From a bacterium (GTDB taxonomy: Bacteria > Acidobacteriota > Blastocatellia > Pyrinomonadales > Pyrinomonadaceae): 33,568 nt of DNA. The stretch covers positions 1 through 33,568 of the forward strand of contig JBDUCB010000332.1 of the NCBI GenBank assembly GCA_040003695.1. Reading direction: 5' to 3'. Under the pieces are notes generated by a model. The model was not told where the DNA came from and searched no databases. It saw nothing but the letters and a program-made list of their open reading frames with translations. The translations under genes and the position numbers were made by a program. This document shows positions 5,539 through 32,298 of this stretch, piece after piece. Each line of letters opens with the position of its first letter. Position 1 is the first letter of the stretch.

Positions 5539-6021
5539 GGCGATCATCTCCACTTTTTCGGCAAGGAAGTCCGCGACATTAACATCCGTCGCATCGGTTT
5601 TGTAGCGGCTGAGATAGTGCGCCATGGAGGGGCCGTGATTTGCGCAGCCGTTAGTCCCTACCGAGCGACCCGAAATGAATGTCGCTCCATGATTGGGAGT
5701 GATCGATTTATGGAGGTCTACGTCGATACTCCTCTCGAAGTTTGCGAGCAGCGCGATCCCAAAGGGATGTACGCGCAGGCACGTGAAGGGCAAATCACTG
5801 GATTCACTGGAATTGATGATCCATACGAACCGCCAAACAGTCCGGAGATCGTTCTCGAAACAACACAAACAGCGGCTGAGTTGAATGCTCAGCGAATTCT
5901 CTCCTACCTTATCGAACGGAGTCTTGTCGAAAATTTCCCGCCGGTCGAACGCGAGATGGATGAAGAATGGACAAGGTCCTATGAAGGCGATGGCGTGAAG
6001 AGTTTGTCCTTCAACATTTGA
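5539..6021 (+). pseudogene. cysC: Adenylyl-sulfate (APS) kinase remnant, 5'-truncated (no P-loop)
   Basis: KEVRDINIRRIGFVAAEIVRHGGAVICAAVSPYRATRNECR...FMEVYVDTPLEVCEQRDPKGMYAQAREGQITGFTGIDDPYEPP matches the C-terminal two thirds of APS kinases. The GxxGxGKS/T P-loop and the LDGD segment are missing. The longest start-capable ORF is GTG 5617, but homology begins right after the TAG at 5536-5538. Confidence 0.75.
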
Positions 6022-11725: not shown

Positions 11726-14700
11726 TTGCCTCCCAGACTTTTTGAGAAAGCTGCTTACGTGACACAAATCACCTTCGCCGAAGAAATTCAGGGACGGCAA
11801 CAGAACGAGACCAGTTATAACCAGCCGTTGATAGCTGTAGGGCGCAACCCTGCGACCTGTCAGATTGTTTTTAATCAAAAACAATGGCCAACGGTTTCTC
11901 GGCAGCATGCTGAATTCCGGTTACAGAATGACCGCTGGTTGGTGTCAGACAGCGGTTCCACCTACGGTACATTTCTCGACGGGCAGCTGCTCAAAGAACC
12001 TGCGGCGCTAAGCGTGAATTCGCGAGTCCAATTCGGATCTGGTGGACCCGTCCTGGTGGTCATCAGAATGGGACAGAAAATGACGGGAATGGAAACGCTG
12101 GCGGAATCGCCCCGTCCATCTCCGTCGTTACCTCCTCGTCAAACATCAGCTTCACCAGCACCGAGTCTTCAATCAGCCCCACACAAGCAGCCTACTGGAA
12201 CAGCTCAGCGCAAGCCCGGCGAGCCTGCCTTTGCGGAATTGTCGGGTGCTGGAACGGGGAGCCTGAGGAGGATCGAACTCAACAAAGAACTCACTCGTTT
12301 CGGCCGCGATGCTGCGGTGGAGGGGGCAATTGACGCTGCCGCAGCGATGGTATCGCGCCGTCATGCCGAAATTCGAAGGCTGAATGGAAAGTACATACTG
12401 GTTGATCTTGGCAGCTTTAACGGAACGCTGCTTAACGGGCGGCGAATTGCCGCACCCGAGGTGCTCCAGCACGACGATAGAGTCGAACTGGGTTCTGGCG
12501 GTCCGACAATCCGGTTTGTTGATCCAGCTAACCCGGTGCCACGGCCGGCGCAGCAGCCTGCTCAATACGTTGATATCGTGGCCCCGGAATTGGTACCGGT
12601 GGTCTCAACTTCGAACAAGATGGGAACCATGGTGCTTGGTTCAGGGACGCCCCTGCAGATCAGCCATGCCAGTGTCGCGGATCGACCGCAGGTTTTTATT
12701 GAACAAGCATTTGGCAATAGCGGACAACTCACTATCGGCCGCAGCGAGGATTGCAATATTCGGCTCGATGGTCTCCTGATATCCAACCGGCATGCTTCGG
12801 TTTTTAATACCACTGCGGGTGTGGCGATCGAGGACCTGGGTTCATCAAACGGCACTTACATCAATGGCCAACGCATCACCGGTCGTAAATGGATCAAGCC
12901 GGAAGATCTGGTACAGATTGGCCCTTTTCTACTGAGAGTGCATCCGCAAAGGGGCGTCGCTGTCTTTGACAACCGGGCCAAGACGCGCATTGATGTTTTC
13001 CAGGTTACGAAGGAAGTACCAAACCGCTCAGGCCCAGGGAAGGTCAGGCTTTTAGACGAAGTGTGTTTGAGCATTCAGCCGAACGAGTTTGTCGGGATGC
13101 TGGGTCCATCGGGTGCCGGCAAGTCTACTCTAATGGACTCGCTCAACGGGATGCGCCCCGCATCTAGTGGCCAGGTTTTGGTGAACAATCTGGATCTTTA
13201 TCATCACCTCGAGTCGCTCAAGCAGTCGATCGGCTATGTGCCCCAGGACGATATCATTCACCGCGAATTGACTGTCTATAGCACGCTCTATTACGTGGCG
13301 CGCTTAAGACTGTCACGGGATATCTCGAGAAAAGAAATTAATCAGATCGTAGGTGAAGTGATGGACGTTACCGGACTTTCTGAACGGCGCGACGTTCCCA
13401 TCTCCCAACTTTCAGGCGGCCAACGCAAGCGTGTCTCCATCGCGGTGGAACTCATTACGAAACCGTCAGTCATCTTCCTCGACGAACCGACTTCCGGTCT
13501 CGACCCGGCGACAGAAGAAAAGGTCATGAAGCTTTTCCGCCAGATAGCCGAATCGGGCAGAACAGTAATTCTGACTACTCACGCGATGGAAAACGTCAAG
13601 CTCTTTGACAAGGTTGTTCTCCTGATGCGGGGCAAACTCGTCTTCTACGGTAAGCCATACGAGGCCCTCGCCCATGTGGGAGCTGAAAGCTTTAAAGACC
13701 TCTACGACAAATTGGAAGCGCCCATCAGTGAGCGCCTCGCAAAGACCAACGGGCAAATATCCAGGGAGCAGGCTGCTGAAGCAGTGGCGGAAGAATGGAA
13801 ACTCCGCTTCATGCAAACCGAGCAATTTGAAAGGAACGTCGCGGATCCGCTGACAGAAGTTTCGAGTACGCCGCGTCAGGCGGCGCCGGCGAAGCGGCGA
13901 ACAACACTTGGCGATTCGCTCCGACAGTGGGCCACGCTCTCGCGGCGGTATTTGGGCGTATTGGCCCGTGACAAGTTTAACCTACTCATACTTTTTGCTC
14001 AGGCGCCGATCATCGCGCTACTCACGTATTTGGTTGTTGGCGCTAACTCCCAGCGAGATTTCCCCTATTTTATCCTGGCGCTGGTTGCACTTTGGTTTGG
14101 CACATCTGTCGCTTCAAGAGAGGTCATTCGCGAACGGGCTGTCTATAACCGTGAGCGCATGGTCAATCTGCGGCTATTGCCTTACGTAGGTTTGAAACTT
14201 TTTGTGCTGATGATGATCGTGAGCTTTCAATGTCTTCTGCTCTTCGGCACGCTGAAACTGCTTGATGTTACAACGCTGATGAGTATGCCTGGTAAGTTTG
14301 GTGGCATTCCGCAACTGCTCGTCATGATTCTAACCGGGATGGTTGGTATCGCACTGGGTCTGTTTATTTCAGCAGTAGTAAAAACATCTGAGATGGCGAC
14401 GAGTCTTGTGCCGCTGATTTTGATACCACAGATTCTGTTCTGTGGCCTGGTTGGGGTTCCGGTTGGTTCGGCCAAAGTTGTCGGCGTCGTGATGCCGGCC
14501 ACTTGGTCATTTGATGAAATGAAACGTTTGTCAGGTCTCGATGTGCTGCGTGGTAAGGACGAGAATGCTCAGCCGGCCGCAAAGAATGAAGGGCGCGGGC
14601 TCTACAAGCAGATTGAACATGAGAACGATGCAAACATTGTGGATGCCAAGGCGAGAATCAACCAATACAAGTCCGACGCCGAAAAAGACTCAAAAGACTT

Positions 14701-14950
14701 TGAAAAGGCTATGGACCAATATCAGAAAGACCTCTTGAACAGAGGCTCTCCTACGAAACCAACTGCACCCAAACTCGGGCCTGCTCCGAAAATAGCTGAG
14801 GCAACTCGCATCCCAGACAATCTGAGCAATTCCGTCGATTTCTTACATCCATGGGGCGGACATTTGACCAATCTTGGAGTGCTCTTGACGATGCTCTTAA
14901 TCTTTCTCGGCGCTACCGGGATTGCTTTACGTGCTCAGGATATTGGCTAG
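11726..14950 (+). CDS. Triple-FHA domain, ABC ATPase and ABC-2 permease fusion (ABCG-type half transporter)
   Basis: Three FHA cores: VGRNPA..SRQHAEF..DSGSTYGTFLDG; FGRDAA..SRRHAEI..DLGSFNGTLLNG; IGRSEDC..SNRHASV..DLGSSNGTYING. Walker A GPSGAGKST, signature LSGGQRKR, Walker B IFLDEPTSGLD. Six predicted C-terminal TM segments. Start is ambiguous (TTG 11726 or GTG 11759). Confidence 0.92.
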   Translation: MPPRLFEKAAYVTQITFAEEIQGRQQNETSYNQPLIAVGRNPATCQIVFNQKQWPTVSRQHAEFRLQNDRWLVSDSGSTYGTFLDGQLLKEPAALSVNSRVQFGSGGPVLVVIRMGQKMTGMETLAESPRPSPSLPPRQTSASPAPSLQSAPHKQPTGTAQRKPGEPAFAELSGAGTGSLRRIELNKELTRFGRDAAVEGAIDAAAAMVSRRHAEIRRLNGKYILVDLGSFNGTLLNGRRIAAPEVLQHDDRVELGSGGPTIRFVDPANPVPRPAQQPAQYVDIVAPELVPVVSTSNKMGTMVLGSGTPLQISHASVADRPQVFIEQAFGNSGQLTIGRSEDCNIRLDGLLISNRHASVFNTTAGVAIEDLGSSNGTYINGQRITGRKWIKPEDLVQIGPFLLRVHPQRGVAVFDNRAKTRIDVFQVTKEVPNRSGPGKVRLLDEVCLSIQPNEFVGMLGPSGAGKSTLMDSLNGMRPASSGQVLVNNLDLYHHLESLKQSIGYVPQDDIIHRELTVYSTLYYVARLRLSRDISRKEINQIVGEVMDVTGLSERRDVPISQLSGGQRKRVSIAVELITKPSVIFLDEPTSGLDPATEEKVMKLFRQIAESGRTVILTTHAMENVKLFDKVVLLMRGKLVFYGKPYEALAHVGAESFKDLYDKLEAPISERLAKTNGQISREQAAEAVAEEWKLRFMQTEQFERNVADPLTEVSSTPRQAAPAKRRTTLGDSLRQWATLSRRYLGVLARDKFNLLILFAQAPIIALLTYLVVGANSQRDFPYFILALVALWFGTSVASREVIRERAVYNRERMVNLRLLPYVGLKLFVLMMIVSFQCLLLFGTLKLLDVTTLMSMPGKFGGIPQLLVMILTGMVGIALGLFISAVVKTSEMATSLVPLILIPQILFCGLVGVPVGSAKVVGVVMPATWSFDEMKRLSGLDVLRGKDENAQPAAKNEGRGLYKQIEHENDANIVDAKARINQYKSDAEKDSKDFEKAMDQYQKDLLNRGSPTKPTAPKLGPAPKIAEATRIPDNLSNSVDFLHPWGGHLTNLGVLLTMLLIFLGATGIALRAQDIG

Positions 14951-16103: not shown

Positions 16104-16349
16104 GAGCGCACGGGCGGCAATTTTGACCAAACTGCGTTTATTGCCGGGGCGCCTCATCCTTTGGGTGGGCACCAAAAGAGTTGACTGAGACTAAGTGGAA
16201 GTCGTTGTTTTCTTCTTAGATAATCTTCGCATACGACCGGCGTTCCTTCTCCCCACTGTTCAAGTTAGTGTGCGCGTGGTCCGTGAGGGTACACGAAGCA
16301 AGGACTTTGTTTCGCGCAAACGTAAGGGGCGCAGTTTGTGAGGACAACC

Positions 16350-19300
16350 ATGAGGAATTACTGCCTAAGGATTAGCACCGTTGGTCGCTTGGGAATAGTG
16401 ATGACCGTGCTCATCGTCTTGGCAAGCAATATGTTCGCCCAAACTCCAACGCCGACTCCCGATCAGCGCGGCCTGGGAATCCAAAGCGCGGGTAATGCAA
16501 ATAATTCTCAGGCTGAACAACAAGCACGAGAGGCTAAGCCGGAACTCGTGCTCCAAACGGGCTACAACAATTTGTTTGGCGCGACCCGGCTGGTCTTCAG
16601 TCCTGATGGACGCTTGCTCGCCACGACTAGCTTCCGCAGCAGCACCATCAAACTTTGGGAGACGGCGACCGGCCGCGAGCTGCGCAATCTCTCGAGCGGC
16701 ACACAAAGCGTGATGGCGACGTCTTCATTTGTTACCTTCAGCCCGGACAGCCGGCTGATTGCAACCGCCGCCGGCGACAACTCGGTCAAAATCTGGGACG
16801 TAACGAGTGGGCGCGAGTTGCAAACACTCGCCGGGTCGCAGGGGTCTCTTGCTTCGTCATTGGGAGTTTATTTCATTGCGTTCGTTGGAAACGGTCAGAT
16901 AGTGACCATCAGCGACGCCATAAAAGTTTGGGACGTAGCGAGTGGGCAGGAGCTGCGCAACCTGGGCTCGACCGGCATAAGCGTCACCGGTCTCACAGGT
17001 GGCGAAGGCGGCGCGGCACTAAGCCCGGATGGTAATCAACTCGCCATCGTAGTTACAGACTCATCGCGACCTCAGGTTAAATTTTTCGATGTGACAAGGG
17101 GCGGCGAGTTAAAAACAATCGACCTGCCTGACAAGGAGCTTGACAGCGCCCAGATCTCTTTCATGTCTGATGGCCGGGTGCTTGCGGCTGGGATCGTAAA
17201 CAAGCAGCTAAAGCTCTGGGACTTGAATGCGAAAACGAGTGAGCGCGATTTAGGTCGGACCACCAACGAGTACACTCCCATTAAATTCAGTCGCGACGGT
17301 CGCCAGGTTGCAGTGGTTGAAGGCTACACGGTCAGACGTTGGGACACCGCGAGCGGACAGGAGTTGCCGGCATTGAAAGTGCCGAACGGCGGCCTGCTCG
17401 CAATGCAGACTGGAACGTTCGTTAGCTTCAGTGACGATGGGAGACGATTTGCCACCGGTGGCTTTGATACGCCCACTGTCATCTGGGATACGGAAACCAG
17501 CAAACAACTTCTCAAACTGAACGGCCGCACGAACATGGCCTACAAGGTCAACTTCAGCGCGGATGGTACTCAACTGTCTTCCGGCGGACGCACTCGGTGG
17601 GACCTGCGTGCGGGTCGTGGACTGAGAATCACCACCGCGCCTGCCGACAGGATGATCACACTGCCAAGTCCCGACGGCTGGTTGCTTGCGGCCTACAGTC
17701 TGAACAGCAACGCGGTTTCAATTCTCGAAACTGCTACCGGACGCCAACTGCAAACACTCGCTCCCGCATCGGGCCGCAGCGTTGTGCAGCGGGCCAGTTT
17801 CAGTCCTGACAGCACAATGATCGTGGTAACTTACGGTCCCAGCGCCGACGACTTACAAAAAACTTCCCGCGGCCCACAGTCAGCGATGAGTGATAGTCCG
17901 ACAAAGATCTGGGAAGTGAAGTCCGGACGCGAACTTTCTACTTTGATGATGGGCGCGAGCGCCAACGATGCGGGCTTCAGCTCTGACGGACGCGTGGTGG
18001 CAACGCTCAGCTCAATGGGAACAATCTCGCTTTGGGACACTGCATCAGGAAACAAGTTACGAGATCTGAGTACTTCACCAATCGACAAAATGACTTCAAT
18101 CGGAAGCCTTGGCAACCTCGGCTCTCCCGGTTCAATGAAACCTGGCAAATCCGGTTCGATGCCGACCATGCCAAACATGTCGAATATGCCGAACATGACG
18201 AACATGCCAAACATGGCGGACATGATCTCGATGATTACGAACATGATGGGCTCAATGTCTGCGGGCACGATGGGACGCAGTGTAACTTCGCTGGCGTTTA
18301 GTCCTGACGGCCGCATCCTCGCAACGGGCGGTGTTGAGTCAAAGTCGAATTTTGATCTCGCCGCTATGATGAACGGTGGGGCGAACCAACCGGGGCAAAA
18401 GAAATCAAAGAACAAACCTCCGCCAGACCCGCAAGATGTCATGAAGGATATGAAGGTCGAAGCGGTGGGCCAGGTAGTGCTCTGGGATGTGGCCAGCGGC
18501 CGCGAACTGGGAGCACTCAAGGGACACGGCAAGGGTGTTACTCGAGTCGCATTCAGTCGCGATGGCCGGCTACTCGCATCGAGCGGTAGCGACAACACAA
18601 TCAAGATTTGGGACGTGGCCACTCGCAGCGAGCTGCGCACACTCAAGGGCCATACAACCAATATTGATTCGCTCGACTTCAGCCCTGACTCACGCCTGCT
18701 CGCTTCAGCCAGCGACGACGGCTCGACTTTTTTGTGGGACACCAATACAGGCGAACATTTGGTGACGCTTATCTCCCTCGACGATGGTGGTGAATGGATG
18801 GTGGTCACGCCGCAGGGTCTGTTTGACGGTACGCCGGTTTCCTGGAACCAGATTCTTTGGCGCTACAACCAGGACACTTTCAACGTCGCGCCCATCGAGT
18901 GGTTCTTCAATGAGTTTTATTATCCCGGCTTACTTGCTGACATTCTCGCCGGCAAGCGACCGCATGTGGCCCAGGATGTTTCCAAAAAAGATCGGCGCCA
19001 GCCACTTGTGAAATTATCACTCATTTCGGAAACCCCTGCGGCAGGCGGCGCCGCAGCCGACCCGACGGGGATAACTTCGCGCACGGCCAAAGTAAAAATC
19101 GAAGTAACCGATGCGCCAGCCGACAAAGATCATCTACAGGGCAGCGGCGCGCGTGATGTGCGTTTGTTTCGCAACGGTTCGCTGATAAAGGTTTGGCACG
19201 GCGACGTATTAGATGGGAAACCCTCCGTCACCTTGGAGGAAGAGATTACCGTCACCGCCGGAATTAACCGTCTGACGGCGTACGCTTTCAACAAAGATAA

Positions 19301-20285
19301 CGTGAAGAGTAAAGACGCGCAGTTGCCGCTTACCGGTGCCGAAACCCTCAAGCGTGCCGGCACTGCTTACATAATTGCTATAGGCATAAATGAGTATGCG
19401 AATCCGCAGTACAACTTGAAGTATGCGACGGCCGATGCGCAGAGCTTCAGTGAAGAGGTACGTCTCAGGCAAACACAAGTCGGAGCCATCCAGCGCATCG
19501 AGGTAGTCCCACTCATCAACGAAAATGCGACGAAAGCAAACATCCTTTCTGCCCTGCGGCGACTATCCGGTGCGCCTGAGCAGCCTACTCTCAAAGCGGG
19601 TAGTCTTAGTAACCTGCAGCGCGCCCAGCCCGAGGATACGGTCATTATTTACTTCGCCGGTCATGGCACCGCGCAAGCTCAGCGCTTCTATCTTATCCCG
19701 CATGATCTTGGCTACACGGGTGACCGTACCAAACTCAATGAAGCGGGATTGCGCACCATACTCGCAAACAGCATCTCTGATGAAGAGTTAGAGCAAGCCG
19801 TTGAAGGTCTCGACGCCGGACACCTGTTGCTGGTGATCGACGCCTGCAACTCGGGACAGGCATTGGAGGCTGAGGAGAAGCGCCGCGGGCCAATGAATTC
19901 AAAAGGTCTGGCCCAGCTTGCGTACGAGAAGGGCATGTACATTCTCACCGCCGCACAGAGTTATCAGGCAGCACTTGAAACCGCACAACTCGGTCATGGG
20001 TTGCTGACCTATGCCCTGGTCGAGGAGGGGCTCAAGACACTGGTTGCGGATAGCGGACCGAAGGATGGCGTGGTGAATGTGCGGGAGTGGCTCGACTTCG
20101 CGACGGAGCGCGTGCCGCAGATGCAGGAAGAAAAAATGAAACAAGCGCGCGGTATCGGTCTCGAGATCGCTTTCATTGAGGGTGAGCAAAACATCGCCGA
20201 CCCGCAGAAACGCAGCGTCCAGCGTCCGCGTGTTTTTTATCGCCGCGAGTTAGAGGCCAATCCCCTGATCGTCGCGAAGCCGTAA
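16350..20285 (+). CDS. Signal peptide, 14 WD40 repeats, beta-sandwich linker and a C-terminal caspase-like (peptidase C14) domain
   Basis: GAGGA RBS then ATG 16350. N-terminus MRNYCLRISTVGRLGIVMTVLIVLASNMFAQ. There are 14 repeats of type FSPDGRLLAT...IKLWD..TGRE. C14 dyad: YFAGHG (His codon 19662-19664) and VIDACNSG (Cys codon 19845-19847). Confidence 0.93.
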   Translation: MRNYCLRISTVGRLGIVMTVLIVLASNMFAQTPTPTPDQRGLGIQSAGNANNSQAEQQAREAKPELVLQTGYNNLFGATRLVFSPDGRLLATTSFRSSTIKLWETATGRELRNLSSGTQSVMATSSFVTFSPDSRLIATAAGDNSVKIWDVTSGRELQTLAGSQGSLASSLGVYFIAFVGNGQIVTISDAIKVWDVASGQELRNLGSTGISVTGLTGGEGGAALSPDGNQLAIVVTDSSRPQVKFFDVTRGGELKTIDLPDKELDSAQISFMSDGRVLAAGIVNKQLKLWDLNAKTSERDLGRTTNEYTPIKFSRDGRQVAVVEGYTVRRWDTASGQELPALKVPNGGLLAMQTGTFVSFSDDGRRFATGGFDTPTVIWDTETSKQLLKLNGRTNMAYKVNFSADGTQLSSGGRTRWDLRAGRGLRITTAPADRMITLPSPDGWLLAAYSLNSNAVSILETATGRQLQTLAPASGRSVVQRASFSPDSTMIVVTYGPSADDLQKTSRGPQSAMSDSPTKIWEVKSGRELSTLMMGASANDAGFSSDGRVVATLSSMGTISLWDTASGNKLRDLSTSPIDKMTSIGSLGNLGSPGSMKPGKSGSMPTMPNMSNMPNMTNMPNMADMISMITNMMGSMSAGTMGRSVTSLAFSPDGRILATGGVESKSNFDLAAMMNGGANQPGQKKSKNKPPPDPQDVMKDMKVEAVGQVVLWDVASGRELGALKGHGKGVTRVAFSRDGRLLASSGSDNTIKIWDVATRSELRTLKGHTTNIDSLDFSPDSRLLASASDDGSTFLWDTNTGEHLVTLISLDDGGEWMVVTPQGLFDGTPVSWNQILWRYNQDTFNVAPIEWFFNEFYYPGLLADILAGKRPHVAQDVSKKDRRQPLVKLSLISETPAAGGAAADPTGITSRTAKVKIEVTDAPADKDHLQGSGARDVRLFRNGSLIKVWHGDVLDGKPSVTLEEEITVTAGINRLTAYAFNKDNVKSKDAQLPLTGAETLKRAGTAYIIAIGINEYANPQYNLKYATADAQSFSEEVRLRQTQVGAIQRIEVVPLINENATKANILSALRRLSGAPEQPTLKAGSLSNLQRAQPEDTVIIYFAGHGTAQAQRFYLIPHDLGYTGDRTKLNEAGLRTILANSISDEELEQAVEGLDAGHLLLVIDACNSGQALEAEEKRRGPMNSKGLAQLAYEKGMYILTAAQSYQAALETAQLGHGLLTYALVEEGLKTLVADSGPKDGVVNVREWLDFATERVPQMQEEKMKQARGIGLEIAFIEGEQNIADPQKRSVQRPRVFYRRELEANPLIVAKP
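18168..18221 (+). repeat. Three tandem 18-bp coding repeats (ATGCCRAACATGNCGRAY) encoding MPNM(S/T/A)(N/D)
   Basis: Units at 18168-18185, 18186-18203 and 18204-18221. They sit inside a Met-rich loop (18135-18272) of the WD40 protein. Confidence 0.85.
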
Positions 20286-20982: not shown

Positions 20983-21489
20983 CTACGTAGTTGTTAACCA
21001 GCTTGTTCTTAGTGTTGGAGGCCGCATCAGGGTTCTCATGACAACACAGTACTGTTCCGTTTTCTCTTTCAGAGTCGCCAATTCTTCCGCTGAAGCATGC
21101 GGTGCGCTTATGTCGAATCTGGCACGAATGTCCTGGAAACCGACGGGCACATCTTTTGAAATTCCCAGAGTTCCTCGAAGATCCATCTCTCCTTCCACCT
21201 CTACCTGAATGTTCTCAACTGGGATTGCCATAGCAGTAGCGACGAGTTGACAGGTCAACTGCGCACAAGCTGCTAGCGCTCCCAGCAGAAGGTCACCCGA
21301 GCAAGCAGCAGTCCCCGATCCTCCGACGCCATGATGAGCTTGTGCGGCAAAAATCGCCTGCCCCACTTCGACAGAGCAGGCAACCGGCGTATCCGATTGA
21401 GAACTATTAGCTTTTAGTGTAATACGCGAGCTATTAGGGTCGCTACGGTATTTTTCTTTCAGAGGTTTCTGGACTGATCGAATATCCAT
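20983..21489 (-). CDS. OsmC/Ohr family peroxiredoxin-like protein
   Basis: GTAACSGDLLLGALAACAQLTC and EKTEQYCVVMRTL carry the two conserved OsmC cysteines in the usual context. Confidence 0.88.
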   Translation of the reverse strand: MDIRSVQKPLKEKYRSDPNSSRITLKANSSQSDTPVACSVEVGQAIFAAQAHHGVGGSGTAACSGDLLLGALAACAQLTCQLVATAMAIPVENIQVEVEGEMDLRGTLGISKDVPVGFQDIRARFDISAPHASAEELATLKEKTEQYCVVMRTLMRPPTLRTSWLTTT

Positions 21490-21837: not shown

Positions 21838-24066
21838 TCACTGTAAGTCGGCCACCAGTTGTTGAAACTCTACCTCACCGCGCATCCCATCAAACGAGCT
21901 GTCAGTTTTCGCCCATTGTGCTACGGTTCTGAACCCGCTTTCAAAAGCGCGCCGAAGTGAAATGAGCGCCGCAGGTTTTTCGCCGAGCAGCGCATAGGCA
22001 CAAGAACAATTGTAGATTGCCAGCCCATCATTCGGCTGCAGCTCCAAGACTCGTTTGAGCGTTGCATGAGCTTCCTCCTTACTTCCGAACCGAGCGTATG
22101 CTTCGGCAAGTCTGCTCATTACGTTAATGTCATCAAGACTCGCCTCGAGCTTTCGAGAAGTAACCTCGATGACCTTTAGCGCAGCTTCTTCGGCCGCTTT
22201 AATGTTTGCCAGCTTTCGATGAACGCCGACAAGAAATCTCCACGGGTCTTCATCGTAAGGCTTTAATTCTGTCGCCCTACGATAATACTTCAGTGCGCAA
22301 TCCAAGTCGCCCGAGAGTTCTGCAATCATTCCCAGGCGGAGGAAGCCAGGGTAGAACTTAGAGTTCTCTTTCAGAATTGCTTCGATTGTGCGTTTCGACT
22401 CGGAGAACCTTCTTTGATGGAAATAAAGCATCGCGATGCCAAACTGAGCTTCTATTGAAGTAGGATCCAGCATCAAGGCTTTCTGATTCATCTCTATGGC
22501 TTTGGCCAGCCAAATAGAGTTCCCATCGTACCATTCGTACATCTGCGAGTACGCTTCGGCCAGGCCGGCGTATGAAGAGGCAAAGTGGGCGTCGATAGCG
22601 AGAGCATCCTGAAACATTTGGATTGCGCTCTCAGTATTCGTCTTTCCCTTTAGAAACAAAAGCTCTCTGCCGCGCATGTACAAATCATAGGCTCTCAAAT
22701 CATCTGTAGGTTTCCTGTTAAGCAGTTGTCTCTCCGCATCCGTCAGGGAAATCTTTAGCGCATCAACGATTTTTTGCGAAACTTCATTTTGCAGATCGAA
22801 GATGTCGTCGACCAGACGATCAAAACGTTCAGCCCAAAGCTGATAACCATCTCGAAGGTTGATGAGTTGTGCCGTGATACGGATCTTATTACCTGCCTTC
22901 CGAACACTTCCCTCCAAAATGTAGTTTACGCGAAGCGCTTCACCCACGTGCCGTGTATTTACCTCCTTATTCCGGAAAGGAAGCACGTCAGTTCGCGAGA
23001 CCACTTTCAATTCATTAATCTTTGAGAGGTCCGTAATAATGTCCTCGGTCATGCCCGCACAGAAGTAGTCGCTGTCGTTTTCCGAGTTCATATTTTCAAA
23101 GTAGAGTACGGCAATCGACTTCTCGGGAATCGGCGATGACTTTCCCGAATCCTGTGTTGTATTGGTGGTTACCTTTTTAAGAGAAACCGTAGCAGATTCT
23201 TCCTTCAGATAGCTCTTCAGGTCTTTGAGGTCGATAAACAAGTCCTTGACAGTCTGGTACCGTTCCTCGCGGTCCTTTCGCAACGCGCGGTAGACAATAC
23301 GTTCAAACTCGCGCGGTACTTCCAGCATGGGAGATGCAAGTGAATCAGGATCACGATTCAGGATGTCTGATAGCACATCCAGGGGCGTTGCACCCGGAAA
23401 CGCCTGACGGCCCGAAATCATTTCGTACAGGACACAGCCCAGACTCCAAATGTCTGTGCGGGCATCTACAGCAATTCCCCTGGCCTGTTCGGGTGACATG
23501 TACTGAGCTGTGCCAAGAATGACACCTCCCTCAGTCTTAAAGAAGCCTTGCGTTGGCGCCTGCGAGTCCGAATGAGCACCCCACCGATCTCGAGCAAGTT
23601 TGGCTAGACCAAAGTCCAGGACTTTCACAATGCCATCGCGGCGCAGCATGATGTTCTCTGGCTTAATGTCGCGATGCACAATGCCGACGCTATGAGTCAC
23701 ACACAAAGCACCGGCTACTTGAATAGCGACATCGATCGCGTCGCCAGGCTTAACCGGCCCGCTCCTTAGCAGGTCGCGCAGCGTCTCGCCGTCGATGAAC
23801 TCGGTCGCGATGAAATTCTGTGAATCTATCTCGTCGATTTCGTAGATCGTGAGAATGTTTGGATGGTTCAGTGCGGAAGCAGCCTTCGCCTCTTGAATGA
23901 AACGACGCACCAGATCATGGTTTCCGACGTCGGCCGGCAGAATCTTTAAAGCGACTTTGCGATCCAGCTTCGTATCATGCGCGAGGTAAACCTCACCCAT
24001 TCCACCTGCTCCAAGTTTGGAGTGGACTTCGTAGCGGCCAATTCTTTTGCCTGTAAAAATCGCCAA
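21838..24066 (-). CDS. Ser/Thr protein kinase, TolB_N-like domain, TPR repeats (no TM segment)
   Basis: GAGGMGEVY, VALK, HRDIKPENIM, DFGLA and YMSPEQ. Then IAVLYFENMNSENDSDYFCAGMTEDIITDLS...YILEGSVRKAGNKIRITAQLINLRDGYQLWAERFDR. Then about 7 TPR-like repeats. Start is TTG 24066. Confidence 0.93.
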   Translation of the reverse strand: MAIFTGKRIGRYEVHSKLGAGGMGEVYLAHDTKLDRKVALKILPADVGNHDLVRRFIQEAKAASALNHPNILTIYEIDEIDSQNFIATEFIDGETLRDLLRSGPVKPGDAIDVAIQVAGALCVTHSVGIVHRDIKPENIMLRRDGIVKVLDFGLAKLARDRWGAHSDSQAPTQGFFKTEGGVILGTAQYMSPEQARGIAVDARTDIWSLGCVLYEMISGRQAFPGATPLDVLSDILNRDPDSLASPMLEVPREFERIVYRALRKDREERYQTVKDLFIDLKDLKSYLKEESATVSLKKVTTNTTQDSGKSSPIPEKSIAVLYFENMNSENDSDYFCAGMTEDIITDLSKINELKVVSRTDVLPFRNKEVNTRHVGEALRVNYILEGSVRKAGNKIRITAQLINLRDGYQLWAERFDRLVDDIFDLQNEVSQKIVDALKISLTDAERQLLNRKPTDDLRAYDLYMRGRELLFLKGKTNTESAIQMFQDALAIDAHFASSYAGLAEAYSQMYEWYDGNSIWLAKAIEMNQKALMLDPTSIEAQFGIAMLYFHQRRFSESKRTIEAILKENSKFYPGFLRLGMIAELSGDLDCALKYYRRATELKPYDEDPWRFLVGVHRKLANIKAAEEAALKVIEVTSRKLEASLDDINVMSRLAEAYARFGSKEEAHATLKRVLELQPNDGLAIYNCSCAYALLGEKPAALISLRRAFESGFRTVAQWAKTDSSFDGMRGEVEFQQLVADLQ

Positions 24067-25345: not shown

Positions 25346-25840
25346 ATGCACGCTTCCGCGATCAATATCATCTTGAGCTTTGCTGGCGCTCTCGTGCTTC
25401 ACGAAATGGGACACTTTCTTGCAGCTCGCGCTTGCTCTGTTCCCATCACCGAAGTGGGATTCGGTTGGGGCCCAAAGCTTTTTGGTTTCCGGGTTAATGG
25501 CGTTGACTATCAACTGCGTCTATTACCGCTCGGCGCCTATGTCCGGATGGACATGTCTGATTTACAGAAGCGTCCGCTGCTGCAACAGTTAATCGTCTTG
25601 CTGGCAGGCATTGCAGTGAATCTCATTCTCGCAGCCATCGCCTTGGGAACTTTCTTTGGTACTCTCAATCTCGTGCTGGCACTCGGTAATCTATTCCCGT
25701 TATACCAACAAGACGGATGGAAAAGCGGCATGGTGATCTTCCGTCGCGCCTTCAAGCGGCCCAGTCCACTCGTAGAATGGTCCTTCACGCTTTCTGCCGG
25801 ATTGGTCGGTTTGCTCCTACTTGTGCGCGCTCTCTTTTAG
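25346..25840 (+). CDS. Minimal site-2 protease (peptidase M50, RseP-like core, no PDZ domain)
   Basis: HEMGHFLAARACSVPITEVGFGWGPKLF...LRLLPLGAYVRM matches the RseP N-terminal HExxH region. NLFPLYQQDG corresponds to the NxxPxxxLDG motif. Only 164 aa with about 4 TM segments. Confidence 0.85.
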   Translation: MHASAINIILSFAGALVLHEMGHFLAARACSVPITEVGFGWGPKLFGFRVNGVDYQLRLLPLGAYVRMDMSDLQKRPLLQQLIVLLAGIAVNLILAAIALGTFFGTLNLVLALGNLFPLYQQDGWKSGMVIFRRAFKRPSPLVEWSFTLSAGLVGLLLLVRALF

Positions 25841-26194
25841 GAGACACTTTCAGCGAATCGATCCTATTCGCAATCGATGTTGTTAGCCACTAGCAAGGTC
25901 TGACCTGATCCCAGCCGCAGGATGATAAAGCTTGGCAAAGTCGCCCTTCACTTCATGAATCATGACGTCGTGAGAATTCATTAGAGACCTAGATGTACTC
26001 CGGTTATGGCCCCTGGTGCCAGCAGGATCTATGGTCAATCGAGAATATTGCTGCCCTGTTAGATTAACGATATAAGCGCAGCTCTCTCTGTCTCTCTCCT
26101 CTCGCCAGATGTAGCAGCGTCCGAACGTAGACGCGCATAGCCCTGCCGTGATAAAAGGCCCTTCGCGTTATTCGATTACGAGCGAGGCCAGCCA

Positions 26195-27460
26195 ATGGCA
26201 AGTGCCAACACTATTCTCTCCCAGAATTACAAATTTCTTGATCACAAAGCTGCATGGCTTGGCCTGTTGGCGATAACCCTTTTAGGTCTCGCGATCGTGA
26301 TTGCACCCGTTTGGATCATTCAACCATTCAAACCGCAGACTGCGCGCGGAGTGGAAGTCTCCTATGGGTTGCGCCGATGGTCACCGCTGGTGACTGTCAT
26401 CGCGGCGTCGGTTGCATTAATTCTCACTCTGTGGCTGTGGCGTAGCTTGCGCGGCTGGTGGCGAAAAGCGGTACTGGTATTAATCCTTGTACCTCTGCTG
26501 GCGTCCACCTGGTTCGCGCGCCAGAGCCAATTTGAGTGGATGTTTAATCCACTCGCCTATGCTACCTACGCAAAGACGAGCGCGGCGCAATTTGTTAATG
26601 ACGGCGACGTTGTTATGGCAGTTGAAAATAACGGCGAAGCCGCAGCTTATCCCGTTCGTCTGATGGCTTACCATCACCTGGTCCAAGACGTGGTTGGAGG
26701 CACGCCCATAGTCGCTACTTATTGAACGCTCTGTCACACCGGTCTGGTGTGGGAAACGACAGTAAACGGACGGCAACTTCACTTTCATCTTGCCGGAATC
26801 AATAACCAGAATTTCATCATGCGTGATGAAGAAACGGGCTCATGGTGGCAGCAGGTCACCGGCGAAGCTATCCAGGGGCCGCTCAAGGGCCAGCGCCTTC
26901 GTCCTGTTTTCCATGATGAGTTGACCTTCGGATTATGGAAGCGCGAGAAACCGGAGGGACGCGTGTTGCGACCCAACGAAGAGATTGCACGAGCAGGGAA
27001 GTATGCGCCGGCCAACTGGGAAGAACGAATGGACAAGGTGCCGGTTACAACGTCGGTTGCACTCGATAAATCTCTTGAACCCCGAACAATCGTAGTCGGT
27101 ATCACTGTTAACGGAATCTCAAAAGCATATCCATTCGACGCATTAGTCAAACAAAGTCTGATAATGGATGCCTTCGCCGGCAGTCCGATCTTAATCGTTA
27201 TCGGGGATGACAAGAAATCAGTTCGCGCCTTCGAAAGAATAGTAGGTGGACGCAAGCTGGAATTCTTTCTTAAACCGAATACCGCATCGCTAACTTTGCT
27301 TGATGCTGAAACAGGCAGCGAATGGGATTTCACTGGTAGGGCTGTCGCAGGCCCTCTCGGAGGGAAACAACTAAAGAAAGTCAGCGTGCTTAACGACTAT
27401 TGGTTCGACTGGACTACTTACCATCCGAACACAATCGTTTATGATCTTGGCCGCCGTTAA
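26195..27460 (+). CDS. Membrane-anchored DUF3179 protein with one in-frame TGA (26723-26725) at the first Cys of the conserved CxxC motif; either a selenoprotein or a pseudogene
   Basis: ORFs 26195-26725 and 26747-27460 share one frame. The junction reads GGTPIVATY*TLCHTGLVWE where the family has VTYCPLCGSG. Downstream, FIMRDEETGSWWQQVTGEAIQGPLKG is also typical of the family. Confidence 0.8.
26731..26762 (+). promoter_or_regulatory. SECIS-like stem-loop directly downstream of the in-frame UGA
   Basis: Upper stem CACACC (26735-26740) pairs with GGUGUG (26746-26751), with apical loop GGUCU. Lower stem CUGU (26731-26734) pairs with ACAG (26759-26762). The structure begins 5 nt after the UGA. 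Confidence 0.3.
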
Positions 27461-27988: not shown

Positions 27989-28897
27989 ATGGAATTGGGT
28001 CAATTGCAAACATTTCGCGTAGTCGCGGAGACGCTTAATTTCACTAAGGCCGCCGAACGCCTTCATCTAACACAGTCTGCGGTGAGCCATCAGATCAAGG
28101 CTCTGGAAAGGGATTTGGGGGAACCCCTCTTTCTCCGATCGAAGCGAGGCGTCAAACTGTCTCAGATGGGCAAACTTGCGCTTGAACATGTAGAGCGCAT
28201 TCTCGATGAAACGCAGACACTGCGTGAGCATCTGTCTGGTCATGATAGTTCGCCCGTTGGCCAAGTGCGCGCAGCCGCGGGAACGCAAGCGTTCGTTCAT
28301 TTATTCGCAGGACTCTTTGAGTTGTTTATGCGCGAGCATCCGGGGGTCGAGCTGTCTTTTCGCACTACGGCGAGCACCGATCAAACGGTGACGGACATCT
28401 TGAACGGCGCCGCGGATGTTGGTTTTGCCTCGATGCCCGTCTATTCACCGGCTTTGAAGGTAACAGAACTATTTGAAGATGAGCTGGTATTAGTTGTGGG
28501 CCATAATCATCGCCTGGCGAAGAAGCATGAAGCTAAAGTTAGAGAAATAGAGGGTGAGCGTCTGATTCTATTTGAAAGAGGAGCTTCGATTCGCCGGGCG
28601 ACTGAGCTATTTTTTGAGCGAGTCAACATAAGTCCGAAACTGGCCCTCGAATCAAACGACACTTTCTTTATTAAGCTCATGGTCCAACACGGTCTGGGAA
28701 TCTCTCTTTTGCCGTCGTGGTCGGTGCGTGACGAAGTAACTGCCGGGACGTTGGCAAAACTGCGGATTGAAGGTCACAAATTGCGCCGGTCGGTAGCCAT
28801 GGTTACGTTAGCTAGTTTTCAACCCTCGCCCAAGCGTGCATTTGTGGCTTTTATCCTCGCTCACCGTAAAGAATTGCAGAATAGCGCGCGGGCATAG
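27989..28897 (+). CDS. LysR family transcriptional regulator
   Basis: The HTH region is MELGQLQTFRVVAETLNFTKAAERLHLTQSAVSHQIKALERDLGEPLFLR. A LysR substrate-binding domain follows. Confidence 0.95.
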   Translation: MELGQLQTFRVVAETLNFTKAAERLHLTQSAVSHQIKALERDLGEPLFLRSKRGVKLSQMGKLALEHVERILDETQTLREHLSGHDSSPVGQVRAAAGTQAFVHLFAGLFELFMREHPGVELSFRTTASTDQTVTDILNGAADVGFASMPVYSPALKVTELFEDELVLVVGHNHRLAKKHEAKVREIEGERLILFERGASIRRATELFFERVNISPKLALESNDTFFIKLMVQHGLGISLLPSWSVRDEVTAGTLAKLRIEGHKLRRSVAMVTLASFQPSPKRAFVAFILAHRKELQNSARA

Positions 28898-29012
28898 ACC
28901 CTAGATTGGCGCGGGAGATAGCAACGCGCACAAGGTAACGGTGGACTGTTCACCAACTCTGCACGGAGCGGACTCCCCTCAGCCTTTTGTGTTATTTGTA
29001 CCCCTGGGACTA

Positions 29013-29903
29013 ATGAAATTCGTAGGGAAAACTATCTGCAGAGCGAGCTGCATCACGCTCGTCAGCGCCTTAATCCTTATCGGGACGGCTGTCGCGCAAC
29101 GGCCACACACACTGACCGGCGACATCCGCGTGCACAAAAATTTTCACTCACAAATTCTAAACAATGATCGCGATGTGCTCGTCTACCTGCCGCCGGGCTA
29201 CGACGTCGCGAAGGCGAAGCGTTATTCCGTTTTTTACCTGCATGACGGGCAGAACCTGTTTGACGGCGCAACGTCTTTTATTCCTGGGCAGGAATGGCGC
29301 GTTGACGAAACAGCACAGAAACTGATCACTGACGGAAAGATCATGCCGCTCATCATCGTTGCCGTTTACAACACGAAAGACCGAATCGACGAGTACACGC
29401 CGGCGGCCGATGCCAGGCATAAGATGGGCGGCAAAGCGGATCTCTACGGCCGCATGTTAGTGGAGGAGTTGAAGCCTTTCATCGATGCTAAATATCGAAC
29501 GAAGAAAGATGCTGGGCACACAGGTGTGGGTGGCTCATCGCTTGGCGGGTTGGTTTCACTCTACCTGGCTTTGAAGTATCCAGGCGTGTTTGGCCGCGCG
29601 GCGGTAGTCTCGCCGTCGGTGTGGTTCGCGAACAAACAGATCGTACGTTACGTTGAGGCTCTGCCGGAAAAGACAAGTGTTCACATCTGGATTGACATCG
29701 GAACAAAGGAGGGCCATTCGGCAGAAGAAGCGCAGCAGACCGTTAACGATGCGAGGCTCTTGAAAGACGTGCTAGTAAAGAAGGGCTGGAAACTTGGAAA
29801 AGATCTCAATTACTTCGAAGCCGCAGGCGCTGAACATAACGAAGGGGCCTGGGCGGCGCGCGTCGAAGTGATCCTGAGATTCCTTTTTCCGCGAAAGATA
29901 TAA
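29013..29903 (+). CDS. Secreted alpha/beta-hydrolase, putative esterase family (esterase D / enterochelin-esterase-like)
   Basis: Signal peptide from ATG 29013. VLVYLPPGYD...YSVFYLHDGQNLF, the nucleophile elbow GGSSLGG, and a C-terminal HNEGAW. The ORF track opens at GTG 28941. Confidence 0.85.
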   Translation: MKFVGKTICRASCITLVSALILIGTAVAQRPHTLTGDIRVHKNFHSQILNNDRDVLVYLPPGYDVAKAKRYSVFYLHDGQNLFDGATSFIPGQEWRVDETAQKLITDGKIMPLIIVAVYNTKDRIDEYTPAADARHKMGGKADLYGRMLVEELKPFIDAKYRTKKDAGHTGVGGSSLGGLVSLYLALKYPGVFGRAAVVSPSVWFANKQIVRYVEALPEKTSVHIWIDIGTKEGHSAEEAQQTVNDARLLKDVLVKKGWKLGKDLNYFEAAGAEHNEGAWAARVEVILRFLFPRKI

Positions 29904-29974
29904 GATAATCGCGGTCGAGAGTTGCACATGCGTTGTCCGTTTCGTTTTGCGAATTTCACCAGGAGGAAATTGTC

Positions 29975-30493
29975 ATGAAAAGCTGGAGAAGATTTACGTT
30001 AACCGGACTCGCCGCGCTGGTTGTTTCATGTTCGCTGGCCTTAGTGGTGAGCGCCCAGGATCGCGCAATTGTGTTGACCGGAACAGACTTGACGCGGGTT
30101 GTACCGCCCGGGTTTTATTTTCAGGGTCTAACAGCGCCCACGCAGATGCGTAACTCGGCGGCCGCCCGTTTCGGCGCCGACCGTTACGTGATCGCGGGCC
30201 TGGTTGATACTTCCGGATACGCTGCCGACGTGCGCGCAAAATATGAAGGGTTTCTAATCACTGATTCGCCTATCATGATTAATGGCTCGGAGCTCGGGAC
30301 GGGCGCCTATGGGTTTGGTTTTACTAATGATGGCAAGCTTAACGTGCTCGATCTCTCGGGTCACGAAATCCTTTCTGTCTCCACAACTAAAGACACGGCG
30401 TTGAAGCGTCCACGCCCATTAATGATGAGTAAATTTGGAAATGACATTCGCCTCTACAACGGAAAAGACTACGCGGTAATCGCAGCGAAGTAA
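29975..30493 (+). CDS. Secreted hypothetical protein
   Basis: AGGAGG at 29961-29966 and ATG at 29975. Signal peptide MKSWRRFTLTGLAALVVSCSLALVVSAQ. Its stop overlaps the next start (TAATG at 30491-30495). Confidence 0.7.
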   Translation: MKSWRRFTLTGLAALVVSCSLALVVSAQDRAIVLTGTDLTRVVPPGFYFQGLTAPTQMRNSAAARFGADRYVIAGLVDTSGYAADVRAKYEGFLITDSPIMINGSELGTGAYGFGFTNDGKLNVLDLSGHEILSVSTTKDTALKRPRPLMMSKFGNDIRLYNGKDYAVIAAK

Positions 30494-32298
30494 TGCGTCT
30501 ATCTTTAATGTGCGTAAATCGTTTCCGCTTATCTTCGCTAGCTCTGCTTTTACTTGTTGCTTTAGATCCGCTCGCGGTTATTTGCCAACAAGCGACGTCC
30601 TCTCCGACCCCGCAGCGTGTGGGTAAATCTTATAGTGTTGAAGCTCCCACGAAGAAGCCGCTTCCCCCGATCCCGCAGGCACAGTCTCCTGTCACGTTCA
30701 CCGACATTACAGGTTCCTCACGTAGTAATTTTAAGCGCGCCCCATCTTTAACTTCCATGAAGTATCTAATCGAAGCGATGGGTGGAGGCGTCGCGATGTT
30801 TGACTATGATAACGACGGTCGGATGGATCTATTTTTCACTAATGGCGCGGCTCTAAAAGATCCGATGCCGAAAGCAGAAATGCCTGACAAGCGGGACGCG
30901 AAATATTGGAATCGTCTCTACCGGCAAAAGGCTGATGGCACGTTTACTGATGTTACTGAAACAAGCGGACTAAAGGGCGCGGGCTACAGTATGGGAGTAG
31001 CGGCTGCCGATTATGACAACGACGGCAATACGGATCTTTACATCACCGGGTACGGCGTTAATTATCTGTATCACAACAACGGCGACGGCACATTTACGGA
31101 CGTAACGAAAAAGGCGGGCGTGGGCTCCAGCGGCTGGTCCACCAGCGCGGCCTGGCTCGATTATGATCGCGATGGACGGCTCGACCTTTTCGTCGGGCGC
31201 TATGTTGAATGGGACTTCGACGCCGGATCTGTGTACTGCGGCGAGATTCGTCAAGGTTACCGCGCCTATTGCCACCCCGATAATTTTAGAGGCGCGACGA
31301 ATGTTCTTTACCACCAGGGCGTCGATGGATCGTTCGAAGATGTAAGCGGCAGAACGGGAATCGAGGAACCTGGCGGCAAGGCGCTAGGCGTGGCGTTGGC
31401 GGACTTTGACAACGACGGATTCACGGACATCTTTGTCGCTAACGACAGCGTGCGCCAGTCGCTTTATCACAACAAGGGTGACGGTACGTTTGAAGACGTT
31501 GCTATTTCGTCAGGCGCCGGCTATGACGAAAACGGAAAAACTTTTGCGGGAATGGGAATCGATGCAGCCGATTATGACAACGACGGCTACATGGACATCT
31601 TCATCACTACCTTGTCAAACGAAACCTACCCGCTTTATCACAACGATCGCGACCTCAGCTTTACATATACAACCAACTCGGCGGGCGTCGGTCAGATAAC
31701 ACTCCTTTATTCCGGGTGGGGTGCACACTTTATCGACGCCGACAACGACGGCCTGCGCGATCTCTTTGTATCGCAGAGCCACGTGCTTGATACGATTGAG
31801 AAGACGAACCCTTACCTGAAATACAAACAGTCGCCGTTATTGATGATCAATACCGGAAAGGGATTTACGAATGTTTCGGCCACCGCGGGACCTGTCTTTA
31901 ATACTTCACTGATCGGGCGTGGCGCTGCGTTTGGCGACTTGAATAACGATGGGCAGATTGATGTTGTGATCGCAGCGCTTGATGGTTCTCCCGTTTTACT
32001 AAGAAACAATGGCACAAAGAACCATTGGCTGGGCTTGTTCCTGGTCGGATCAAAATCGAATCGCAACGGAATCGGCGCTCGCATAATTGTTACCGACAAC
32101 GCGGGCAAGAAACAGATTTTCGATGCAAATACTGCGGGAAGCTATTTGGCTTCGAATGATCCCAGGATCATCGTCGGTCTGGGCCCGAGCGCGACTGTGC
32201 GGACGGTTGAAGTGAAATGGCCCAGTGGAACAATGCAAGTGATTACTGAGCCGCAGATTGACCGATATCTAGTTGTCAATGAGCAGAACGCGCGGTAA
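30493..32298 (+). CDS. CRTAC1 family protein (FG-GAP/VCBS repeats plus ASPIC/UnbV C-terminal domain)
   Basis: Repeated FDYDNDGRMDLFFTNG / DYDNDGNTDLYITG / DYDRDGRLDLFVG / DFDNDGFTDIFVAN motifs. C-terminus is NRNGIGARIIVT...GSYLASNDPRIIVGLG...VEVKWPSG. Confidence 0.9.
   Translation: MRLSLMCVNRFRLSSLALLLLVALDPLAVICQQATSSPTPQRVGKSYSVEAPTKKPLPPIPQAQSPVTFTDITGSSRSNFKRAPSLTSMKYLIEAMGGGVAMFDYDNDGRMDLFFTNGAALKDPMPKAEMPDKRDAKYWNRLYRQKADGTFTDVTETSGLKGAGYSMGVAAADYDNDGNTDLYITGYGVNYLYHNNGDGTFTDVTKKAGVGSSGWSTSAAWLDYDRDGRLDLFVGRYVEWDFDAGSVYCGEIRQGYRAYCHPDNFRGATNVLYHQGVDGSFEDVSGRTGIEEPGGKALGVALADFDNDGFTDIFVANDSVRQSLYHNKGDGTFEDVAISSGAGYDENGKTFAGMGIDAADYDNDGYMDIFITTLSNETYPLYHNDRDLSFTYTTNSAGVGQITLLYSGWGAHFIDADNDGLRDLFVSQSHVLDTIEKTNPYLKYKQSPLLMINTGKGFTNVSATAGPVFNTSLIGRGAAFGDLNNDGQIDVVIAALDGSPVLLRNNGTKNHWLGLFLVGSKSNRNGIGARIIVTDNAGKKQIFDANTAGSYLASNDPRIIVGLGPSATVRTVEVKWPSGTMQVITEPQIDRYLVVNEQNAR

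Follow-up and report, generated by a model that had tools for sequence, protein, structure and literature searches.

An in-frame UGA in a DUF3179 gene of soil Pyrinomonadaceae probably encodes selenocysteine and precedes a conserved SECIS-like hairpin

DUF3179 (Pfam PF11376) figures on published lists of selenoprotein families, with the motif UxxC/T (U being selenocysteine, Sec), in Zhang et al. 2022 (PMC9312934) and in a 2026 review in Applied and Environmental Microbiology (PMC13188914). Both reviews credit Zhang & Gladyshev 2007 (PMC1976440) and its marine worm-symbiont metagenome. NCBI, too, names relatives of the protein described here "DUF3179 domain-containing (seleno)protein", one of them from Pyrinomonadaceae. 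In the current study we analysed a stretch of 33,568 nucleotides (nt) from a bacterium of that family (Acidobacteriota; Blastocatellia; contig JBDUCB010000332.1 of assembly GCA_040003695.1), henceforth the window, which carries a DUF3179 gene at positions 26195–27460 with a TGA inside its reading frame. A first-pass annotation of the sequence had proposed selenocysteine at this TGA and presumed DUF3179 to be new as a selenoprotein family; the latter presumption does not hold, as DUF3179 is already an established selenoprotein family, defined computationally and named as such in the reviews and NCBI records cited above. The window gene shares with the published DUF3179 selenoproteins the Pfam domain, Sec at the first residue of the CxxC motif, a UGA followed by a stem-loop and the existence of Cys homologues, and its U177-T-L-C180 agrees with the published motif. 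It differs from them in coming from soil Acidobacteriota rather than a marine worm-symbiont metagenome, and in the three predicted membrane helices that precede the Pfam domain at its N-terminus. All testable family features are present; the identification is correct, and of a kind already known.

Our preferred reading, to which we assign a probability of roughly 0.88, is that the gene encodes a single membrane-anchored DUF3179 selenoprotein of 421 residues in which UGA177 is recoded through SelB and a selenocysteine insertion sequence (SECIS). The UGA would not be taken as a stop in translation; a hairpin in the mRNA 9 nt further downstream (26735–26751) would act as the bacterial SECIS; the elongation factor SelB, carrying Sec-tRNA(Sec), would bind the GGUC of the hairpin's apical loop so that selenocysteine is placed at the UGA; and translation would then proceed to the TAA at 27458. 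The features on which this reading draws are as follows.

26195–27460, plus strand: complete DUF3179 gene, read here as a selenoprotein gene, with ATG start, Sec codon 177 and TAA at 27458–27460; the Pfam match spans the TGA
26184–26187, plus strand: Shine-Dalgarno-like GAGG, 7 nt upstream of the ATG at 26195, read from the sequence
26723–26725, plus strand: UGA codon 177, first position of U-x-x-C, from TGA conservation and alignment to the family Cys
26732–26734, plus strand: Cys180 codon TGT, second position of U-x-x-C, a Cys in 93 of 101 family representatives
26720–26752, plus strand: frozen synonymous block, codons 176–186 (TAT TGA ACG CTC TGT CAC ACC GGT CTG GTG TGG), from synonymous entropy
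26735–26751, plus strand: putative bacterial SECIS hairpin, from minimum free energy and centroid folds

Translation confirmed that one frame of 421 codons, closed by the TAA, runs through the gene and that the TGA, lying between GGTPIVATY and TLCHTG, is its sole internal stop. The first-pass annotation had also claimed that both flanks retain family similarity without a frameshift or second stop, and this was borne out when the 421-residue translation, with Cys substituted at the TGA, was compared with Pfam: DUF3179 was matched at E 6e-66 (223.3 bits, against a cut-off of 27 bits) over residues 124–413 and profile positions 11–292 of 292, uninterrupted across the TGA. The listing of open reading frames (ORFs) cuts the gene into two, one at 26195–26725 (176 aa) and one at 26747–27460 (237 aa, with a GTG start).

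Conservation of the TGA was assessed in two sets of relatives. A peptide-pattern scan of one genome per species (GTDB), made without the TGA site, gave 427 relatives, and orthologue counts refer to the best 80 of these (61–78% amino acid identity), all of them metagenome-assembled genomes (MAGs) of Pyrinomonadaceae, Blastocatellia and unclassified Acidobacteriota. The second set comprises 80 further soil metagenome loci, found by a scan seeded with the Cys-form homologue P0076, its patterns again excluding the TGA site. The aligned codon is TGA, flanked by ATY and TLCHTGLVW, in 80/80 genome orthologues, and it is TGA in 79 of the 80 metagenome loci, the exception (L152) having TGC in an otherwise identical context. 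The retrieval patterns do not cover the site itself, and such agreement is far beyond chance. In a codon alignment of the window gene and its 80 orthologues (81 sequences), positional entropy at first, second and third codon positions was 0.89, 0.60 and 1.54 bits upstream of the TGA and 0.65, 0.44 and 1.44 bits downstream of it; third positions vary far more than first and second ones on both sides, a signature of purifying selection on the protein in this frame before and after the TGA.

These data bear on the alternative offered in the first-pass annotation, namely that a very recent one-base change (TGY to TGA), be it a nonsense mutation or a sequencing error, has produced a fresh pseudogene. 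TGA is indeed one base away from TGC and TGT, and the TGC of L152 stands in the very same context; yet the stop is ancient and shared by both sets, which refutes a recent mutation. The flanks, moreover, are under purifying selection and show no secondary stops or frameshifts except in the low-coverage MAG L058, while L152, its hairpin intact, resembles the reverse event, from Sec to Cys. We accordingly regard a fresh nonsense mutation as having practically no chance of being correct. In L058 a short deletion with a frameshift occurs about 25 nt after the TGA, just past the hairpin (...GGTGTGAGGC...); as the coverage of this MAG contig is about 1.25x, it is probably an assembly error and not a pseudogene.

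The pairing of Sec with Cys among homologues, a check that the first-pass annotation had called for, was confirmed. Among the best 120 matches in the protein database, 15 are full length (at least 400 aa; 45–57% identity), and all of these have Cys at the position of the TGA within an otherwise identical motif, ATYCTLCHTGLVW (ATY[C]TLCHTGLVW); for six of these a TGC codon was confirmed in the DNA. Across the family, as judged from 101 diverse full-length DUF3179 representatives, Cys occupies the aligned position in 94 and the +3 position in 93, and the motif that the first-pass annotation gave for family members proved correct, YCPLCGSG and YCPLCGTG both occurring. The other 105 of the 120 matches measure 231–241 aa, the length of the post-TGA ORF alone, which points to a systematic error by which this gene is annotated as a pair of ORFs in MAGs and metagenomes from soil. 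An exact look-up of the window's own 237-aa ORF returned no identical record. A library of clusters at 50% identity likewise contains many representatives that start just after the motif and seven that end in ATY or similar, directly before it; gene callers therefore split DUF3179 at this codon in many lineages. The conserved in-frame UGA and the 244 codons under selection downstream of it in 80 species constitute strong indirect evidence, drawn from sequence comparison, that the UGA is decoded.

The nucleotides following the TGA are constrained beyond what the protein demands. The 30 nt after it are near-invariant over the 81 species, synonymous positions included, and codons 176–186 have a mean synonymous entropy of 0.08 bits, whereas 107 other conserved codons average 1.35 bits; the block is the lowest 10-codon window of the gene (the next lowest reaching 0.84), and none of 20000 permutations attained 0.08. 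Within this block lies a hairpin, here termed type A, of the form CACACC[GGUCU]GGUGUG, with a 6-bp stem, an additional U.G closing pair (26734/26752) and a loop at 26741–26745; it begins 9 nt past the UGA and covers nt +13 to +29. The predicted structure is that expected of a bacterial SECIS, a stem-loop 3' of and close to the UGA with a conserved G(U) in its apical loop. In a strict census of 160 TGA forms a GGUC-loop hairpin was present in 154; of the other six, one has a variant loop (GGGCU) and five have a type-B stem (see below) with a single mismatch.

The constraint is specific to the TGA. Six Cys forms encode the same peptide, TLCHTGLVW, yet seven synonymous sites vary among them and the hairpin is gone in four of the six; the two nearest the Sec clade, L152 and L162, still have it. 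These two, the former from the metagenome set and the latter corresponding to P0001, both carry TGC and retain the exact type-A hairpin nucleotides, and their sequences suggest that Sec has recently been converted to Cys, which would be the opposite of a nonsense mutation. A sister clade with the peptide TLCHTALVWER (L081–L087, L089, L090, L092, L093, L096–L098, L112, L122 and L159) bears substitutions that weaken the type-A stem and remove the GG from its loop, and it has instead a new 7-bp hairpin, type B, CCGCUCU[GGUCUG]GGAGCGG, situated 5 nt further downstream, the loop of which again opens with GGUC. Five members of this clade have a single C.A mismatch in the stem.

A frozen block that covers both the TGA and the subsequent GTG would, taken alone, also fit a signal for translational coupling, and most databases' gene calls do show two ORFs. 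The gene might on this account be a conserved split gene, in which a 176-residue membrane fragment is followed by a separate 237-residue part starting at GTG 26747, the conserved nucleotides serving termination-reinitiation. Such an arrangement would cut a beta-hairpin in the first of the two DUF3179 repeats described below and leave TLCHTGL, half of the family's most conserved motif, untranslated. The position of the TGA is precisely that of the Cys conserved in the family, and the Pfam model is continuous across the site. In addition, none of 81 sequences has a Shine-Dalgarno-like motif ahead of the GTG that follows the TGA, and in the sister clade GTC (Val) replaces this GTG, so that the proposed start is lost while the TGA and a hairpin are kept. 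A split gene is thus highly improbable, and we return to the selenoprotein reading.

The proposed signal has a known counterpart in the SECIS of Escherichia coli fdhF, whose sequence matches 5413 records, annotated "fdhF, selenocysteine-containing", with 100% identity. In the E. coli element the loop G and U are the nucleotides contacted by SelB, as established by Hüttenhofer, Böck, Engelberg-Kulka and others. Both hairpins belong to the coding sequence, follow the UGA closely on its 3' side and present GGUC(U) in a loop encoded by GGU CUG (Gly-Leu); the fdhF loop occupies nt 22–25 counted from the U of the UGA, and that of DUF3179 starts at nt 19 (type A) or nt 24 (type B). They differ in that the DUF3179 stem has another sequence, no obvious bulged U, an upper stem of 6–7 bp and no conserved lower helix, and in that Sec in FdhH ligates molybdenum whereas Sec in DUF3179 sits in a UxxC motif.

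A number of results weigh against the selenocysteine reading. Neither the window nor the related loci, about 2 Mb in all, yielded a selA, selB, selD or tRNA-Sec gene, a result to be expected should these genes be located in another part of the genome. ARAGORN detected no tRNA in the window and neither a tRNA-Sec nor any tRNA with a UCA anticodon in the related loci, and in the window and these loci a rough tblastn search with approximate E. coli SelA, SelB and SelD queries gave just two weak SelB matches, both of which are LepA by Pfam. A scan of the same DNA for an in-frame TGA followed by a GGU-loop hairpin revealed no other convincing selenoprotein gene, and the literature yielded nothing on Sec in Pyrinomonadaceae or Blastocatellia, although some Acidobacteriota are documented to use it. 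No Rfam SECIS family matched at gathering thresholds over the whole window, nor at E up to 10 around the site. The stability of the hairpin relative to shuffled sequences is unremarkable (z about −0.3 to −1.3), a score that is uninformative because the authentic fdhF SECIS is itself non-significant (z −0.94). When the peptide is held fixed, 7.9% of random synonymous recodings yield a GGUC-loop hairpin, so that the hairpin is weak evidence when one sequence is considered by itself, and it is the comparative pattern, not folding energy, on which the case is founded; and, the stem being invariant, classical base-pair covariation is absent.

The UGA might also be read through as something other than Sec, by an opal-suppressor allo-tRNA(UCA), by a SelC*-type tRNA-Cys(UCA) or through a lineage-wide reassignment of UGA. 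Mukai et al. (PMC5389517) described unusual allo-tRNAs in Acidobacteria as possible suppressors of the missense or nonsense type; the tRNA-Cys(UCA) that they report as compatible with SelB belongs to other phyla. The SelC* tRNAs come from anaerobes of those phyla, which is a further point against their involvement here. General reassignment is contradicted by the window itself, since TGA terminates 3 of its 15 Pfam-supported ORFs, and neither an allo-tRNA nor a UCA-anticodon tRNA was seen in the window and related loci. Furthermore, the codon takes the place of a CxxC Cys, and the conserved hairpin downstream of it has a GGUC loop resembling that of fdhF; both are specific to SelB-dependent decoding. 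Read-through of this kind is, in our estimation, improbable. The selenocysteine (UxxC) proposal of the first-pass annotation is hence supported by the Sec/Cys pair, by the invariance of the TGA in 80/80 genomes together with the coding pattern on both its sides, by a hairpin frozen specifically in TGA forms and by the ordinary use of TGA as a stop elsewhere in the window.

Concerning the protein, Sec177 and Cys180 are its sole Sec/Cys residues, and its architecture consists of a membrane region followed by two homologous repeats:

26264–26524, plus strand: three predicted transmembrane helices (residues 24–42, 63–81 and 92–110), from a hydropathy scan and the AlphaFold2 model of P0001
26609–26908, plus strand: DUF3179 repeat 1, residues 139–238, with His160, His161, Asp165, Sec177 and Cys180, from internal BLASTP
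27089–27382, plus strand: DUF3179 repeat 2, residues 299–396, without HH and U/CxxC, from internal BLASTP and the secondary-structure pattern

The AlphaFold2 model of P0001, a Cys form 58% identical to the window protein (pLDDT 89.7, pTM 0.84), has three long N-terminal helices and two beta-rich repeats. Topology is ambiguous by the positive-inside rule, and the domain might lie on either side of the membrane. The two repeats are 34% identical over 100 residues (E 3e-18, internal BLASTP of the halves) and both contain the motif ETGSxW...G...GPL, but the HH...U/CxxC residues occur in repeat 1 only, where Sec177/Cys180 would be located at the tip of a beta-hairpin, near His160, His161 and Asp165 in sequence. 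Conservation across the 101 family representatives singles out His160 (92/101), position 161 (His in 62, Glu in 30) and Asp165 (96/101), along with Thr175, Cys/Sec177, Cys180, Thr/Ser182 and Gly183. Most likely, U177 and C180 would form a redox-active selenenylsulfide centre; alternatively, they may bind a metal together with the conserved His, His (or Glu) and Asp.

No relative in the PDB was found by sequence profile and no NCBIfam model matched. A Foldseek search of the PDB with the P0001 model gave coherent matches to Rieske-type proteins only, all at E of at least 0.05: PetC3 (5cxm_A; TM-score 0.65 on the target, probability 0.99), BphF (1fqt_A; 0.52) and BphA3 (2e4p_A; 0.58). The ETGSxW...G...GPL motif of the repeats also resembles the Rieske CHGSxF...G...GPA in hhalign comparisons. 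Against this, hhalign with two Rieske ORFs from the loci gave probabilities of 0.2% (repeat 1) and 15.6% (repeat 2), DUF3179 is devoid of the CxH...CxxH ligands, and its U/CxxC does not align with Rieske box II, so that the similarity would be a lead at the level of the fold only. Membership of the Rieske [2Fe-2S] proteins is not supported, the ligand motif being absent and the Pfam Rieske profile unmatched at E up to 10; nor does H-H-x15-U-x-x-C mimic the Rieske CxH-x15-17-CxxH, given the hhalign probability of 0.2% and the alignment of box II elsewhere. The notion that DUF3179 consists of two Rieske-fold-like repeats and is a redox or metal enzyme, with a new selenium active site comprising Sec177, Cys180, His160, His161 (His/Glu) and Asp165, is put forward as a speculative proposal that we consider unlikely on balance.

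Two further assignments were considered. A CXXCH heme site, an idea arising from a table on Idiomarina, found no cytochrome match in Pfam, and it is disfavoured as a family feature because the residue after the second Cys is His in just 15 of the 101 representatives (R in 40, N in 14, others in the remainder); the clade of the window has U/C-T-L-C-H. With the UxxC/CxxC oxidoreductases (thioredoxin-fold, AhpD/CMD-like and OsmC-like proteins) DUF3179 has in common that Sec stands in place of the first Cys of CxxC, and the reviews give UxxT for some of its members, as is typical of redox motifs; it differs from them in that neither its fold nor its Pfam matches are of the thioredoxin, AhpD or OsmC kind. 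Thioredoxin-fold membership in particular was rejected, with two beta-rich repeats and no thioredoxin-like match in Pfam or the PDB.

The genomic neighbourhood was also inspected. Window genes include those for a sigma-70 factor, an Rrf2 regulator, a GGDEF response regulator, an FHA-ABC transporter, a WD40 protein, an OsmC protein, a Ser/Thr kinase, a small M50-like peptidase, a LysR regulator, an esterase and an FG-GAP/ASPIC protein; no sel gene is among them. Downstream of DUF3179 a partly conserved set (28941–32298, plus strand, in the window) consists of the esterase (21 loci), a 186-aa ORF without Pfam match (32 loci) and the FG-GAP/ASPIC-UnbV protein (41 loci), and in the window the LysR regulator (27989–28897) stands between DUF3179 and this set. 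The conserved neighbours offer no clear functional clue, and no redox partner gene is conserved near the DUF3179 loci. Genes for carboxymuconolactone decarboxylase (CMD)/AhpD-like proteins, a thiol-redox family with known Sec members, lie just downstream of two Cys-form DUF3179 genes (L165, 2267–2839; L166, 3115–3720), a weak hint at a redox context. The OsmC-like family also has known Sec (UxxT) members; the nearby window gene (20983–21489, minus strand) is a full, uninterrupted ORF and thus presumably a Cys form.

Several other loci of the window deserve a brief description. At 5617–6021 (plus strand) there is a match to the C-terminal half alone of the adenylylsulfate (APS) kinase profile (positions 72–151 of 152), with a stop immediately upstream in the frame and no P-loop half visible, which may represent a truncated or pseudogenised cysC. 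The 164-aa ORF at 25346–25840 (plus strand), 355 nt upstream of DUF3179, has an HEMGH motif, matches the first 100 of 221 Peptidase_M50 positions and shows no M50-like in-frame continuation beyond its stop. Two large and unusual proteins are encoded on the plus strand, one of 1074 aa (11726–14950), in which three FHA domains are fused to an ABC ATPase and an ABC-2 membrane domain, and one of 1315 aa with WD40 repeats (16338–20285); a gene for a Ser/Thr kinase with TPR repeats is at 21838–24066 (minus strand).

Employing a combination of comparative and structural analysis, it was possible to add to what is published on this family that Pyrinomonadaceae have fixed the Sec form, and to describe the freezing of synonymous sites specific to the TGA, two hairpin registers that present GGUC, an internal duplication with a one-sided active site, and the extent of mis-annotation as split ORFs. 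The annotation of this gene should give one selenoprotein. A widespread soil lineage (Pyrinomonadaceae/Blastocatellia) is indicated to keep Sec decoding, and the fact that Sec, and not Cys, is fixed across at least 80 species implies a selective advantage of selenium at this site. The two hairpin registers amount to a natural experiment on SelB recognition in the lineage, while the H-H/E...D...U/C-x-x-C set, together with a repeat pair in which one copy alone has these residues, narrows the search for the function of DUF3179. If the proposal of a Rieske-like selenium enzyme were true, the two GGUC registers would define the SECIS rule of acidobacterial SelB, and abundant, largely aerobic soil Acidobacteria would depend on selenium for a membrane-associated function.

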